Assembly (NCBI GenBank): GCA_040375445.1
Contig: JBEISK010000001.1
Location: 49,144-113,143 of the forward strand
DNA length: 64,000 nucleotides
Direction of reading: 5' to 3'
Origin: Gammaproteobacteria bacterium
GTDB lineage: Bacteria; Cyanobacteriota; Vampirovibrionia; Vampirovibrionales; JAJTHC01
In this document: one piece after another, positions 16,389 to 50,040 of the stretch
Layout: every line of letters starts with the position of its first letter
Numbering within the stretch: the stretch's first letter is position 1
Program-made: the position numbers and the translations under genes
The notes under the pieces: model-generated
Database searches by the model: none
Seen by the model: only the letters and a program-made list of their open reading frames with translations
Told to the model about the DNA's origin: nothing

Positions 16389-17219
16389 ATGAATTCACCG
16401 TCTGATGCTGTTGAAACACCCGAAGAAAATGTCGTCTTGTTTCCCCAAACACGACGCTTCTTGGCTTGGTGCTTAGAACCCCTTCGTAGTATCCTTGAAA
16501 CCGTGGGCTTTGCCACCATCGACGGCAAGCGGATGCTTCACTTCATGGGCGTTGGGCATTGGGGCATGCGTCACATCTTCGATCGCCTCGCCTTTGTGGG
16601 ACTCGACACCATGCCCATGGCGTTATTGCTCACTGGCACGCTGGGTTCGGTGCTTTCTATGCAGGTGGCACCTGATATGGCAGAGCAAGGCGGTTCCGCC
16701 TTTGTAGGGGGACTCGTGGCGGTGGCGATGGTGCGTGAACTCGGCCCTGTTATGACAGGCTTTGCGGTGATTGCCATGGCAGGCTCTGCCTTCGCCGCTG
16801 AAATTACCGTGATGAAAAGCAATAACCAGCTCGATGCCTTGAAAGTCTTACATGTGGATGTCGTGCGTTACCTGATGATTCCTCGTGTACTCGCCACCAT
16901 GATCGCCCTACCGTTTTTAACGCTCATTGGCACGACGCTTGGCATTCTAGGGGGGATGTATACCGCTCATATGATTGCAGGCATTCCTTTTACGGCGTAT
17001 TTGGATTCCGTGCGTACCTTTATTGAAATGCGAGACATTGGCGTGATGTTTATTAAGTCGCTGGTGTTTGCAGGCATGATTGGTTTATTGTGTTGTAGCG
17101 TGGGCTTCACCTCAAGCCGTTCGAGCAATGAATCCGCCAAATCGGTGACTAAAGCCGTCGTGTGGAGCTTTATCACCATGGCGTTGTTGGATTATCTCAT
17201 CACAACACTATTCTATTAG
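16389..17219 (+). CDS. MlaE/Ttg2B-family ABC transporter permease
   Basis: 276 aa with an MlaE-like permease sequence (...LGPVMTGFAVIAMAGSAFAAEITVMKSNNQLDALKVL...). Confidence 0.75.
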   Translation: MNSPSDAVETPEENVVLFPQTRRFLAWCLEPLRSILETVGFATIDGKRMLHFMGVGHWGMRHIFDRLAFVGLDTMPMALLLTGTLGSVLSMQVAPDMAEQGGSAFVGGLVAVAMVRELGPVMTGFAVIAMAGSAFAAEITVMKSNNQLDALKVLHVDVVRYLMIPRVLATMIALPFLTLIGTTLGILGGMYTAHMIAGIPFTAYLDSVRTFIEMRDIGVMFIKSLVFAGMIGLLCCSVGFTSSRSSNESAKSVTKAVVWSFITMALLDYLITTLFY

Positions 17220-17259
17220 AAATGATCTGTAACAATTTACGAAAAGCCTCTTCACACCC

Positions 17260-18456
17260 TTGTTTTTAAGGTATAATAAGCCTGTCGACTCGATGCAATC
17301 CAAACACTCAAAAGGACAACCCCCTCCCATGATGGCAAAAAATAGCACCCCTGTTGAAGCCGCCGTTGATTTAAGCGGTGCCGATTACGAAGCACGCAAG
17401 CAAGCCTTGGCGTTTACCTTAGACAAAATCGAAAAAGATTTCGGTAAAGGCTCTATTATGCGATTGGGCGAGCGTCCCAATGTAAACATTGACGTCATCC
17501 CCACAGGAGCCTTGTCGCTAGACTTGGCACTTGGGGTGGGCGGTATCCCCCGTGGACGCATCGTGGAAATCTACGGGCCTGAATCCAGCGGAAAAACCAC
17601 ATTGACCTTGAACTTAATCGCTCAAGCCCAAAAAAAAGGAGGCATTGCCGCCTTTGTGGATGCTGAGCATGCCTTAGATCCCGTTTACGCTAGAAAATTA
17701 GGCGTGAACATCGATGAATTGCTTATTTCTCAACCCGATACAGGCGAGCAAGCCCTTGAAATCACGGAACAATTGGTGCGCTCAGGTGCGATTGATGTGG
17801 TCGTTGTCGATTCGGTGGCGGCACTTGTGCCGAAAGCGGAAATTGAAGGCGATATGGGCGATGCTCACATGGGTTTACAAGCCCGCTTGATGTCTCAAGC
17901 CTTGCGTAAATTGACCGCCGTTGTCGGCAAAACACGCACCACGGTTATATTCATTAACCAGTTGCGACAAAAAATTGGCGTTTACATGGGTAATCCTGAA
18001 ACGACTACAGGCGGCAACGCCTTGAAGTTTTACTGTTCCTTGCGTATGGATATTCGTCGCATTGAAATCTTGAAAAAAGACGGCGTCGAATACGGCAACC
18101 GTGTGAAATGTAAGATCGTCAAAAACAAGGTGGCTCCTCCGTTTCGTATCGCTGAATTTGATATTTTGTACGGCAAAGGCATTAGCGTGGAAGGTTCTGT
18201 CATTGATGTCGCCACAGAAATGGGCATCGTCAAAAAGTCAGGGACTTGGTTCAGTTACGGCGAAACCCGTTTAGGGCAAGGTCGTGAAAAGGCTCGGGAT
18301 TTCATTATTGAAAACCCTGACATGATGGCAGAAATTGATCAAAAGGTGCGTGAGCGTATTCAAGCGGATCGCAACGCCCTAGATGCCAGTGATGTCATCG
18401 GTGGATCGGCAAAAGATACTGAAATTCCTGAAGCTGATTTGTTGCCATTAGGCTAG
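17260..18456 (+). CDS. recA: recombinase RecA
   Basis: [42 protein letters not shown]. The true start may be an internal Met (MMAKNST...). Confidence 0.95.
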
Positions 18457-18460
18457 CTTT

Positions 18461-18823
18461 ATGGATGCTTCTGCTTCACAAGCGATTGTAGAAAATCTAC
18501 AACGCCTCTTTTCCAATGAAGCGGAAGATCTGTATACACGTCTTAATCAAGCCCGAAACTGGTTCAATGCCGCTGTTTCGGGCTTTGAGATTTATTTAGA
18601 AGATGAGTGGGACGTTTACGAAGAAGGTCAAACCTGGTTTGATTATAATTTGCGAAGCCTTCAAAGCAAAGATGAGTTGCCTCCTTTGGCAAGCGACGTC
18701 TATTTGAATCATCGAGACCCTAACGGCGTTTGGCATTTAGGAGATTATCAGTCGTCTCACGTACGCTTAAATGATTGGGGGCGCATCCAGCATTTTTTAG
18801 AAACGCATTGTGACCCTCTCTAA
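18461..18823 (+). CDS. hypothetical acidic, Trp-rich 120-aa protein translationally coupled to recA
   Basis: ATG lies 4 nt after the recA stop. Many D/E and 5 Trp. No similarity to RecX or DinI recognised. Confidence 0.5.
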   Translation: MDASASQAIVENLQRLFSNEAEDLYTRLNQARNWFNAAVSGFEIYLEDEWDVYEEGQTWFDYNLRSLQSKDELPPLASDVYLNHRDPNGVWHLGDYQSSHVRLNDWGRIQHFLETHCDPL

Positions 18824-18880
18824 TAGAGTGTCCTTGCCTTTTCACCCCAGCTTGTCTACAATAGAGTATAGCCATTTTTA

Positions 18881-18990
18881 GAGTTTTCTGTACCGTTGGC
18901 TAGACGAGGAGCCTAGATTATTTTGTGAGGGCGTGTAGATTGACCTACATAACAGAACAAAAAAATCGTAGCGACAAAGTATAGACCCTG
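18881..18990. repeat. dispersed intergenic repeat (REP/MITE-like family, copy A)
   Basis: gaggagcctagattattttgtgagggcgtgtagattgacctacataacagaacaaaaaaatcgtagcgacaaag is about 85% identical to 49937-50020. Confidence 0.6.
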
Positions 18991-19041
18991 TACAGGAAAT
19001 TATAAATATGGCTATAACGTCGTTATAAGGATGCCCCCCCT

Positions 19042-20337
19042 ATGTCTTACCTCATTATGTTGTTTCTCATCAGCCTCTTGGTCATCCTGCACGAAGTCGG
19101 GCATATGGTCGTGGCACAACGATGCGGCGTCAAAGTCGAACGCTTTGGCTTAGGACTTCCCTTTGGTCCCACCTTATTTGAAAAAGAATGGAAGGGCATC
19201 AAGTGGTGCTTGCATATTCTACCCCTAGGCGGATACGTTAGCTTCCCTGACGACAATGAAGACAGTGATGTTCCCCCCGACTCGCCCCAGCGTTTTGAAA
19301 ATCAGCCCTTGCTCAATCAAGCCGCCATTGCTATGGCAGGCATTACGGTTAATGCTGTGATTGCGGTTGTGTTGATGTTTGCCGTACTCGGCGTATGGGG
19401 AGCCATTCAATCACAGTTACAAATTACAGGTTTTGCCCCTGTTTTAACCGAAAAAGAAGCGGTAAAGACCCCTAGCACATTGGGACGCTTAGCCTTTTAC
19501 GATCACGGCAAACGCCTTTACCTAGACGCCACAACCCCGATTGAAACCGCCGTTTTATTTCGAGGCTTCCTCGCTCACAATATCGATCAACAACTTGATG
19601 TCGCCCCTGTCAGCAACCCTAAACGTGTCTTATTCACCTATGAAACCTCGCCTGCTCAAGCCGTGGGTTTACAAATCGGGGATGTTTTACTTGAGGCGAG
19701 TTCTTCAAAAGGGAATCAATCCAGCTTAGAAGGCTTTTATAGTGAGCCGACCCAAGCCTTGCCCGCCTTTTTAGCACAGTCGCAAACAGGCGATGCCCTC
19801 ACCTTTCACGTCGCTGAAGGAGATTTGACAGACACGCCCAAACTGGCGAAAACGGCGACTCGTCAAGTCACGTTTCCCTTAAGTGATTCTCGTAAACTAG
19901 GCATTTATCTAGGCATGGTGCAAGAAAAGGTGCCTGTGGGACTAGGGACGAATCTGCGATTAACAGCGTCTGTTTTAACGAATATGGTGGTACAGAACTT
20001 TGTCGGACTGGGCAAGCTTTTCACGGGTCAAATTTCGCCTGATATGCTCGACGGGCCAGTGGGCGTCGTTCGCTTTGGTGGGGAACTCATTGAAAAAACG
20101 GGGATTCAAAGTGGTTTGTGGCTCACGGCGGTGATTTCAATCATTTTAGCGGTGATGAACCTCTTGCCGTTTCCTCCCTTAGATGGCAGTTACTTGGTGT
20201 ATATTGGCTATGAAGCACTGTTCAAGCGTTCGTTTCCGCCGACCTTCCGCCATTGGATGAACCTCTCAGGCTTTATCGTCCTCATGGGTATGATGATATT
20301 TGTCTTAGGCAATGATATTCTAAAGCTTTTTAGATAA
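19042..20337 (+). CDS. rseP: RIP metalloprotease RseP (site-2 protease)
   Basis: HEVGHMVVA (HExxH), NLLPFPPLDGS (LDG motif) and a central PDZ-like region. Confidence 0.85.
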   Translation: MSYLIMLFLISLLVILHEVGHMVVAQRCGVKVERFGLGLPFGPTLFEKEWKGIKWCLHILPLGGYVSFPDDNEDSDVPPDSPQRFENQPLLNQAAIAMAGITVNAVIAVVLMFAVLGVWGAIQSQLQITGFAPVLTEKEAVKTPSTLGRLAFYDHGKRLYLDATTPIETAVLFRGFLAHNIDQQLDVAPVSNPKRVLFTYETSPAQAVGLQIGDVLLEASSSKGNQSSLEGFYSEPTQALPAFLAQSQTGDALTFHVAEGDLTDTPKLAKTATRQVTFPLSDSRKLGIYLGMVQEKVPVGLGTNLRLTASVLTNMVVQNFVGLGKLFTGQISPDMLDGPVGVVRFGGELIEKTGIQSGLWLTAVISIILAVMNLLPFPPLDGSYLVYIGYEALFKRSFPPTFRHWMNLSGFIVLMGMMIFVLGNDILKLFR

Positions 20338-20349
20338 CATAGTATTTTA

Positions 20350-20460
20350 AAAAATCAACCATACAGTGTCTCTTCGTTGTCGCTACGATTCTCGATGTGC
20401 TTATGTACGTCTTTGTACACTTCACACATCTGCGAGTCTAGGCTCCTAGAATAGCCTACT
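20350..20460. repeat. dispersed intergenic repeat (same family, copy C, inverted orientation)
   Basis: Reverse complement carries ctaggagcctag... and ...atcgtagcgacaacgaagaga as its ends, matching copies A and B. The core TGTACGTCTTTGTACA palindrome is shared with 53941-53960. Confidence 0.6.
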
Positions 20461-20510
20461 GTCTGCTTAATTTTTTAAAACACTATACCTAAACGGTATT
20501 TGAGTTTCGA

Positions 20511-35434: not shown

Positions 35435-36289
35435 TTATCTAAGTAACTGTATCGCCAAGTTCGGAGCCTGATTGGCTTGACCAAGAACGGTTGCCGCTGC
35501 CTGTTGAAGAATCTGATTCTTAGTCATTTCAGCGGATTCCTTCGCCACATCCACGTTGCGGATGCGTGATTCACTGGCACTGAAGTTCTCGATCGAAATC
35601 GCTAAGTTCGTGCTAGCGGAAGTCAAACGATTACTCAAAGCACCAATAGACGCTCTTCGGTTACCGACACGCTGAAGGGCAATGTCAATCTTTGAAATCG
35701 CTTTCAAAGAAGAGGCGTTAGTGGTCACGCCGAACGCGACAACCGTACCTGAACCAATCCCTAAGCTGGTTTTGCTCAAAGTTCCTAAAGCCGATTGAGC
35801 TGAACCAATGTCTAAGATGTTGGTCCCTGAAGCGGATTCCGCTCCGACCTGAATTTTGAAAGTGGCGACAGAAGAAAAGAGCTTCTTCCCGTTAAATTCA
35901 GTGGCTTTGGCGATACGATCAACATCATTGGTCAGCTGTAACAATTCCTTGTTAATCGCTGAACGCTGATCGACACCGAGCGTATCGTTGGCCCCTTGTA
36001 CAGCAAGTTCACGCATACGTTGCAGGTTATCTGTAATCGTACTGAGTGACCCGTCTGCCGTGTTAAGAACGTTAATACCGTCTTGCACGTTATCATTGGC
36101 TTTTTGACTGCCTCTGATTTGAGATCGTAACGTTTCAGAAATCTGCAAACCCGCCGCATCATCGGACGCTTTGTTGATTCTGAATCCAGATGACAACTTC
36201 TCAAGTGATTTGCCTAGGTCCATGGTGTTTTTACCCAACAGACGTTGTGCATTGAGAGATTGCACATTGGTATTGATTTGAATACCCAT
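35435..36289 (-). CDS. flagellin, short form (D0/D1 only, 284 aa), paralog 1
   Basis: N-terminus INTNVQSLNAQRLL...LSSGFRINKASDDAAGLQIS and C-terminus ...MTKNQILQQAAATVLGQANQAPNLAIQLLR are canonical flagellin termini. Confidence 0.9.
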   Translation of the reverse strand: MGIQINTNVQSLNAQRLLGKNTMDLGKSLEKLSSGFRINKASDDAAGLQISETLRSQIRGSQKANDNVQDGINVLNTADGSLSTITDNLQRMRELAVQGANDTLGVDQRSAINKELLQLTNDVDRIAKATEFNGKKLFSSVATFKIQVGAESASGTNILDIGSAQSALGTLSKTSLGIGSGTVVAFGVTTNASSLKAISKIDIALQRVGNRRASIGALSNRLTSASTNLAISIENFSASESRIRNVDVAKESAEMTKNQILQQAAATVLGQANQAPNLAIQLLR

Positions 36290-36467: not shown

Positions 36468-37322
36468 TTAACCAAGTAACTTCAAGGCAAGCTGAGGGGA
36501 TTGGTTGGCTTGAGACAAGACCGTCGCCGCCGCTTGTTGAAGAATCTGATTTTTGGTCATGTTGGCAGATTCTTTCGCCACATCCACGTTACGGATGCGT
36601 GATTCACTGGCACTGTAGTTCTCGATCGAAATCGCTAAGTTCTGGCTAGCGGAACCCAAACGATTGGTCAACGCACCAATAGAGGCTCTTCGGTTACCAA
36701 CGCGCTGAAGGGCGATATCGATCTTTGAAATCGCTTTCAAAGAAGAAGCGTTGGTCGTTACGCCAAAAGCAACCACTGTACCAGAACCGATACCCAAGCT
36801 AGTTTTACTTAAAGTGCCTAAGGCTGAGCTAGCTGAACCAATGTCTAAGACGTTGGTACCTGAAGCGGATTCCGCTCCGACCTGAATTTTGAAAGTAGCG
36901 ACAGAAGAAAAGAGCTTCTTCCCATTAAATTCAGTCGATTTAGCAATACGATCAATATCGTTCGTTAGCTGTAACAATTCCTTGTTAATCGCTGAACGTT
37001 GATCGACACCTAGCGTATCGTTTGCACCTTGTACGGCGAGTTCACGCATACGTTGAAGGTTGTCTGTAATCGTGCTAAGTGAGCCGTCTGCGGTATTCAA
37101 AACGTTAATGCCGTCTTGAACGTTATCGTTGGCTTTTTCACTACCACGAATCTGAGATCTTAGGACTTCAGAAATCTGTAAACCAGCGGCATCATCCGAA
37201 GATTTGTTGATTCTGAATCCAGACGCTAACTGCTCTAAAGATTTGTTTAAGCCCATGGTGTTTTGGGTTAACAAACGTTGTGCATTAAGAGATTGCACGT
37301 TGGTATTAACATTAATAGGCAT
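36468..37322 (-). CDS. flagellin, short form (284 aa), paralog 2
   Basis: About 90% identical to paralog 1 at protein and DNA level. Own Shine-Dalgarno (AAGGAG). Confidence 0.9.
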   Translation of the reverse strand: MPINVNTNVQSLNAQRLLTQNTMGLNKSLEQLASGFRINKSSDDAAGLQISEVLRSQIRGSEKANDNVQDGINVLNTADGSLSTITDNLQRMRELAVQGANDTLGVDQRSAINKELLQLTNDIDRIAKSTEFNGKKLFSSVATFKIQVGAESASGTNVLDIGSASSALGTLSKTSLGIGSGTVVAFGVTTNASSLKAISKIDIALQRVGNRRASIGALTNRLGSASQNLAISIENYSASESRIRNVDVAKESANMTKNQILQQAAATVLSQANQSPQLALKLLG

Positions 37323-49920: not shown

Positions 49921-50040
49921 AGGAATGAAAGATCGTGTTAGGAGCTTCTAGGAGCCTATATTTTTTTGTGCGGGCGTGTGGAAAGACCTACATAACCAAA
50001 CAAAAAAATCGTAGCGACAACGAAGATACAACACGAGGTT
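49921..50040. repeat. dispersed intergenic repeat (copy B)
   Basis: taggagcctat...gcgggcgtgtggaaagacctacataaccaaacaaaaaaatcgtagcgacaacgaaga, matching 18881-18990. Confidence 0.6.

Follow-up and report, generated by a model that had tools for sequence, protein, structure and literature searches.

The recA-ORF120 locus and its upstream region

The window, that is, the whole stretch of 64,000 nt analysed here, is Vampirovibrionales-like, has a G+C content of 46% and carries recA, followed by a short gene termed ORF120 and by an rseP-like gene (Table 1). The recA product was identified as RecA by Pfam (PF00154, 6.5e-138, together with RecA_C) and NCBIfam (TIGR02012, 554.8 bits) scans. An earlier reading of the DNA letters, referred to here as the sequence-only reading, had recognized recA, which holds, but had taken the frame to begin at position 17260; this is a mechanical TTG start, rejected since the resulting frame overlaps the putative −10 hexamer, and the true, conserved start is the ATG at 17329, which fits the 376-aa gene calls in relatives. 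The sequence 'aaggtataat' around the hexamer is kept in relatives, and was missed by the consensus promoter scan because the −35 region is weak.

Table 1. Features of the recA-ORF120 locus in the window and of related loci (L numbers denote loci).
Feature	Position	Strand	Remarks
Conserved block CTGTAACAATTTA	17227-17239	+	Upstream of the recA promoter; no recognisable LexA box
Putative recA promoter −10, TATAAT	17272-17277	+	Within the mechanical TTG-start ORF; read from the sequence
recA	17329-18456	+	375 aa; ATG start; stop TAG at 18454-18456
recA/ORF120 junction, 'cttt'	18457-18460	+	4 nt, without a leader of its own
ORF120	18461-18823	+	ATG start; 120 aa; acidic α/β protein (predicted fold) of a Melainabacteria-specific family
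Promoter-like TTGCCT-17-TACAAT	18834-18862	+	Candidate rseP promoter; consensus scan
MITE-like insertion	18867-19016		Element 18869-19014, 146 nt; TA/TA target duplication flanks
rseP-like M50 site-2 protease gene	19042-20337	+	PF02163, 9.1e-52
MITE-like copies in the window	20362-20462; 49950-50020		
MITE-like copies in relatives	L011 6404-6514, 8156-8298, 11194-11294; L008 1443-1579; L014 4625-4767		Also in L025
recA-ORF context 1			MlaE / pair / rseP; as in the window
recA-ORF context 2			DegT / pair / convergent 96-aa gene + RNase III; includes the complete Vampirovibrio OL03a genome
recA-ORF context 3			BlaI-like / pair / tig-clpP-clpX
recA-ORF context 4			Unknown / pair / convergent 105-aa gene + rplA
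GCHY-1-adjacent loci	e.g. L020 2135-4903		L005, L020, L021, L022, L023, L024, L027, L035

Further upstream, the block CTGTAACAATTTA is found in relatives of the window type (L001 and L008-L012), as a tandem duplicate in L001 and L012. Within the window its matches are at chance level (3 versus 2.6 expected, at two mismatches or fewer), it is neither a palindrome of a known LexA type nor a known operator, and it is not common to the folE2-side promoters of the relatives described below. The box RGTACNNNDGTWCB, a cyanobacterial consensus that may not be that of the host lineage, was not found near recA at up to one mismatch. The check for an SOS or LexA box upstream of recA, which the sequence-only reading had proposed, returned none: neither this consensus nor CTGTAACAATTTA rose above chance.

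AAGGA followed by a C-rich tract of 10-12 nt precedes the start codons of both recA and rseP (17309-17331 and 19025-19044, respectively), a spacing that is unusually long for a Shine-Dalgarno-like element, and ORF120 is without such a leader. A scan of positions 16500 to 19500 against Rfam yielded nothing but a sub-threshold isrP match lying antisense inside recA (17632-17753, minus strand; 27 bits against a gathering threshold of 45, E = 0.021), which is probably due to chance.

ORF120, its junction with recA and the spacer before rseP

The frame of ORF120 opens only at position 18452, so that the ATG at 18461 is its sole possible start. The description of its product as strongly acidic and Trp-rich is borne out by a pI of 4.46, 21 Asp and Glu against 8 Lys and Arg residues, a net charge of −13 and 5 Trp. 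A word-indexed search recovered 10 clusters at 51-90% identity, an alignment of 11 sequences (ORF120 and its 10 closest relatives) contains 40 invariant columns, and the pairwise dN/dS has a median of about 0.12 (23 informative pairs from 11 orthologous loci). ORF120 is a genuine gene under purifying selection. A spurious ORF, whether arisen by chance between recA and rseP or through a wrongly prolonged recA call, might be suspected since the gene is without annotation and the sources name its family 'hypothetical protein' only, but this reading is excluded by the dN/dS value, by stand-alone homologs that occur in other contexts and can be as little as about 35% identical, and by an AlphaFold2 (AF2) pLDDT of 96. 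Poor coding potential or a lack of conservation downstream of recA, which the sequence-only reading had named as signs of such an artefact, are contradicted within Vampirovibrionales by the same dN/dS and by 13 recA-linked loci.

The start of ORF120 lies 4 nt after the recA stop, as previously noted, and in all 13 Vampirovibrionales loci examined the distance from the recA stop to the ORF start ranges from −8 to +6 nt. Across these loci the ORF is 64-92% identical and RecA 80-99% identical, and the pair falls into four different flanking contexts (Table 1). Since the junction is kept within this range at 13 loci and in four contexts, a translationally coupled recA-ORF120 operon, in this order, is well supported in Vampirovibrionales by comparison of the loci, in agreement with the co-transcription with recA that had been claimed. 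Mechanistically, ORF120 would be transcribed from the recA promoter as part of a bicistronic transcript, and ribosomes ending at the recA stop would probably restart 4 nt downstream on ORF120, by termination-reinitiation coupling.

In some relatives an uncharacterised 96-aa gene lies convergent with the ORF120 homolog (L016 6337-6624 and L014 6369-6647, both minus strand; 67% identical). In the coordinates of L006 and L007 the two genes share 8 nt, at the 3′ end of the homolog; the window does not contain the 96-aa gene. The small genes that face the ORF from downstream in L016/L014 and in L018 were considered as members of a module and rejected, as they are not common across contexts.

The rseP-like gene follows the recA-ORF pair in the window lineage only, the downstream neighbor being different at the other recA-ORF loci. 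The sequence-only reading had described a closed recA-ORF unit, separated from rseP by a REP-like element and a promoter-like sequence. Promoter-like matches in this region are no commoner than in shuffled sequences, but the sequence TTGCCT-17-TACAAT is kept in L008, L009 and L010. The element is not a REP but a TA-duplicating MITE-like insertion, with 27-nt terminal inverted repeats that are 85% complementary and a TA target duplication. It occurs in multiple copies, and L008, L009 and L010, the three relatives closest to the window, all have an exact empty site. Its predicted RNA hairpin is strong (fold z = −4.2), and its insertion point separates the start codon of rseP from the putative promoter of that gene. 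The scan of the stretch from ORF120 to rseP detected no intrinsic terminator; read-through is therefore possible, and the closed recA-ORF unit is not established.

Other copies of the element lie upstream of recA in L014 and, in the opposite orientation, just downstream of the ORF in L011. In its short length, inverted repeats, TA duplication and occurrence in several copies it resembles IS630/Tc1-mariner-derived MITEs, from which it differs in that its copies are few and divergent within the window; no cognate transposase was identified.

A Melainabacteria-specific family and its gene neighborhoods

Searched exhaustively with an HMM, 1.84 billion representatives yielded 45 members of the ORF120 family, 43 of them at E ≤ 1e-10, the closest representative matching the family profile at 8.5e-61. 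The organism names given by the sources are only Melainabacteria or 'Cyanobacteria bacterium HKST-UBA03', and all nine genome matches are to Vampirovibrionales MAGs or to Vampirovibrio sp. OL03a. Scans of ORF120 against Pfam, NCBIfam, PADLOC and PHROGs, as well as Pfam scans of 47 family members, gave nothing significant; weak matches to DUF6439, NEW1_HB and SbmC (E 0.03-0.2) cover parts of the protein only and were dismissed. A tblastn search of phage and plasmid collections returned no copy, a profile search of PDB sequences with the family returned no match, and literature searches found nothing on the protein. No domain fusion occurs anywhere in the family. The family is restricted to Melainabacteria (Vampirovibrionia), and neither the described families nor the solved structures include a relative that could be detected. 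It resembles the lineage-restricted domains of unknown function of the Pfam type, being likewise conserved, single-domain and without an assigned function.

AF2 modelled ORF120 with a pLDDT of 91 from 11 sequences and 96.3 from 47 sequences, and all five models from the 47-sequence alignment agree (pLDDT 95.7-96.3). The predicted fold is a compact, acidic single domain composed of two helices, a four-stranded antiparallel meander sheet and a C-terminal helix (H3-18, H24-38, E42-50, E57-66, E77-85, E91-101 and H106-116). Foldseek found no match to the model in the PDB at E ≤ 0.001 (TM ≤ 0.31). Faint matches to the NTF2/SnoaL-like fold were rejected since the topology differs, and no profile or fold match was found for a Frataxin/CyaY-like acidic α-β sandwich. 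The analysis thus defines an unannotated, Melainabacteria-specific family whose structure is predicted with very high confidence and is without a PDB neighbor.

The family domain spans about 100 residues in the order H-H-E-E-E-E-H and is marked by the motifs Y-x6-R-x3-N, [YFIC]-[LQ]-E-D-x-W, D-x-Y and G-V-W-H-L-x-x-Y; ORF120 shows both the motifs and the topology. Residues N36, E47, D48, W50 and D79 are invariant across 47 members, and Y25, R32, L46, G56, T58, R65, Y81, D86, G89, V90, H92, L93 and Y96 are nearly so. The polar residues of this constellation look like a putative specific site for a ligand, a metal or a partner and not like a diffuse, DNA-mimicking charge surface. Acidity is family-wide, with nearly all members at pI 4.2-5.7 and three at 6.0-6.3, including members that are not linked to recA, which weakens the earlier suggestion that the acidity of ORF120 hints at a DNA mimic; small cytosolic proteins commonly have an acidic pI.

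The arrangement of a small gene directly 3′ of recA is shared with the bicistronic recA-recX operons of E. coli, Mycobacterium and Streptomyces, in which recX is co-transcribed and the stop and start codons abut or overlap. ORF120 occupies this recX position within Vampirovibrionales only. The RecX profile describes three tandem three-helix repeats in a basic protein; ORF120, in contrast, is acidic and is predicted to adopt an α/β fold with a four-stranded sheet. The RecX and DinI Pfam models do not match ORF120 at E ≤ 1, the RecX model matches none of the 47 family members at E ≤ 0.1, and DinI likewise shows neither a profile nor a fold match, so that the earlier statement that ORF120 is unlike RecX or DinI is confirmed. 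Its position behind recA is the one hallmark of RecX that ORF120 shows; the arrangement is known, and the protein is unrelated to RecX or DinI and new.

The distant members of the family never adjoin recA. In 8 loci (Table 1) the homolog stands head-to-head with GCHY-1, the gene for GTP cyclohydrolase IB (FolE2), which is usually followed by PTPS and SDR genes; in 2 of the 8, a small Fer2_BFD gene separates the ORF from GCHY-1. On its other side the ORF has different neighbors from locus to locus, among them surE, a 237-aa gene with a PPIase gene, an integrase gene and rpsM. Elsewhere, the homolog lies 3′ of ispH/LytB with a 5-nt gap (L036/L037 4081-5369), 3′ of Ham1/RdgB with a 15-nt gap (L029 3227-4348) and 3′ of a TPR gene with a 4-nt overlap (L026 50-924). 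The intergenic regions between the ORF120 homologs and the FolE2 operons measure 97-970 nt and, by eye, have no obvious motif in common.

In a neighbor-joining tree all recA-linked members form one clade nested among GCHY-1-linked branches, and adjacency to FolE2 is therefore likely ancestral. The head-to-head arrangement with the FolE2-PTPS-SDR operon is thus the widespread and probably ancestral position of the family, from which the gene has since moved at least four times, once to recA, and each time became a tightly coupled 3′ passenger. The family thereby illustrates clearly how a small gene without a promoter has repeatedly ended up translationally coupled 3′ of unrelated housekeeping genes, and provides a caution that function is not to be inferred from one operon context.

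Possible roles of ORF120

The reading that we place first, with somewhat less than even confidence, is that the core function of ORF120 is not specific to RecA, that its position next to recA is derived, that it is an accessory of the FolE2/pterin pathway and that it borrows the recA signals. The invariant residues are common to recA-linked and other contexts, and a core function of this kind would therefore probably predate the linkage to recA. As a working guess from gene neighborhood, ORF120 could be a small binding or accessory protein of the FolE2/pterin pathway, and in the window lineage it would merely borrow the expression signals of recA. A more novel version, in which it is a small regulatory subunit of the GFRP type or a metal-delivery subunit for GTP cyclohydrolase IB, is conceivable. 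GFRP, the feedback regulator of animal GTP cyclohydrolase I, is also a small α/β protein and could serve as a conceptual analogue for the FolE2-adjacent members. It acts on the type IA FolE and not on FolE2, and neither a Pfam nor a fold match links it to the ORF120 family. The neighborhood link of the family to FolE2 and pterin synthesis is in any case testable.

Several observations weigh against this first reading. The link to FolE2 is one of gene neighborhood only, and divergent pairs can persist through common regulatory DNA. Two of the derived contexts, those of Ham1/RdgB and RecA, involve the maintenance of DNA and nucleotides and so hint at a theme of DNA damage. Rearrangements on both flanks, in four contexts, have left the recA-ORF pair intact, as selection for a functional pair would give; a gene without a promoter or leader cannot easily leave its host, however, and the survival of the pair is therefore ambiguous evidence. 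Two themes that might unify the contexts, the use of purine NTPs (RecA, FolE2 and Ham1) and iron or Fe-S chemistry (IspH and Fer2_BFD), are speculative and were rejected since neither covers all of them.

It is also conceivable, if rather unlikely, that ORF120 is a housekeeping protein tied to neither RecA nor FolE2, the neighborhoods being historical accidents. A gene lacking its own signals would then have been captured repeatedly 3′ of well-expressed genes, and adjacency to folE2 would be inherited synteny. The four different same-strand hosts (recA, ispH, ham1 and the TPR gene), which no functional theme unites, are consistent with this, as is the absence of domain fusions in the family. 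The FolE2 adjacency, however, spans the deepest splits of the family (about 40% identity) with the other flank changing each time, which is more than the usual inertia.

A RecA accessory factor, produced in constant proportion to RecA and binding it or mimicking DNA so as to modulate the filament or the SOS response, is an improbable alternative to the FolE2/pterin reading; such a factor would replace RecX and DinI in Vampirovibrionales, and other members could act without being linked to recA. The junction, which stays within −8 to +6 nt across 13 loci and four flanking contexts, the strongly negative net charge across the family and a position that is that of recX in many bacteria all speak for it. 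DinI and PsiB, which modulate the RecA filament, are likewise small proteins, and DinI contacts RecA through an acidic surface. One other derived context, that of Ham1/RdgB, involves a sanitiser of DNA precursors, and loss of RdgB makes E. coli depend on RecA.

Against a RecA factor, the linkage to recA is confined to a single derived clade; in 8 deep-branching loci the neighbor is FolE2, and at further loci it is ispH or a TPR gene. Neither in sequence nor in fold was a resemblance to RecX, DinI or PsiB detected, a search with the cyanobacterial consensus gave no LexA-type box upstream of recA, and the phage and plasmid collections, which are home to anti-RecA proteins such as PsiB, returned no member of the family. 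Single Asp, Glu, His, Tyr and Arg positions that never vary would also be atypical of DNA mimics. The small acidic RecA partner put forward by the sequence-only reading, as a DNA mimic or filament modulator, therefore loses ground, since linkage to recA characterizes one derived clade and the neighbors elsewhere are FolE2, ispH, Ham1 and TPR genes. Unlinked regulators of RecA are common, and because of this and the survival of the pair through rearrangements, a modulator or DNA-mimic role is possible, although not favored by comparative genomics.

That ORF120 might found a new class of RecA-binding modulators, with an undescribed fold and made stoichiometrically with RecA by virtue of the coupling, is similarly doubtful. 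If it does bind RecA, a structurally new regulator would be added to a well-studied system, and this regulator would come from a poorly known predatory sister lineage of the cyanobacteria.

Elsewhere in the window, two tandem flagellin genes lie on the minus strand (35435-36289 and 36468-37322); each encodes 284 aa with Flagellin_N and Flagellin_C domains, and the two are 90% identical to each other.
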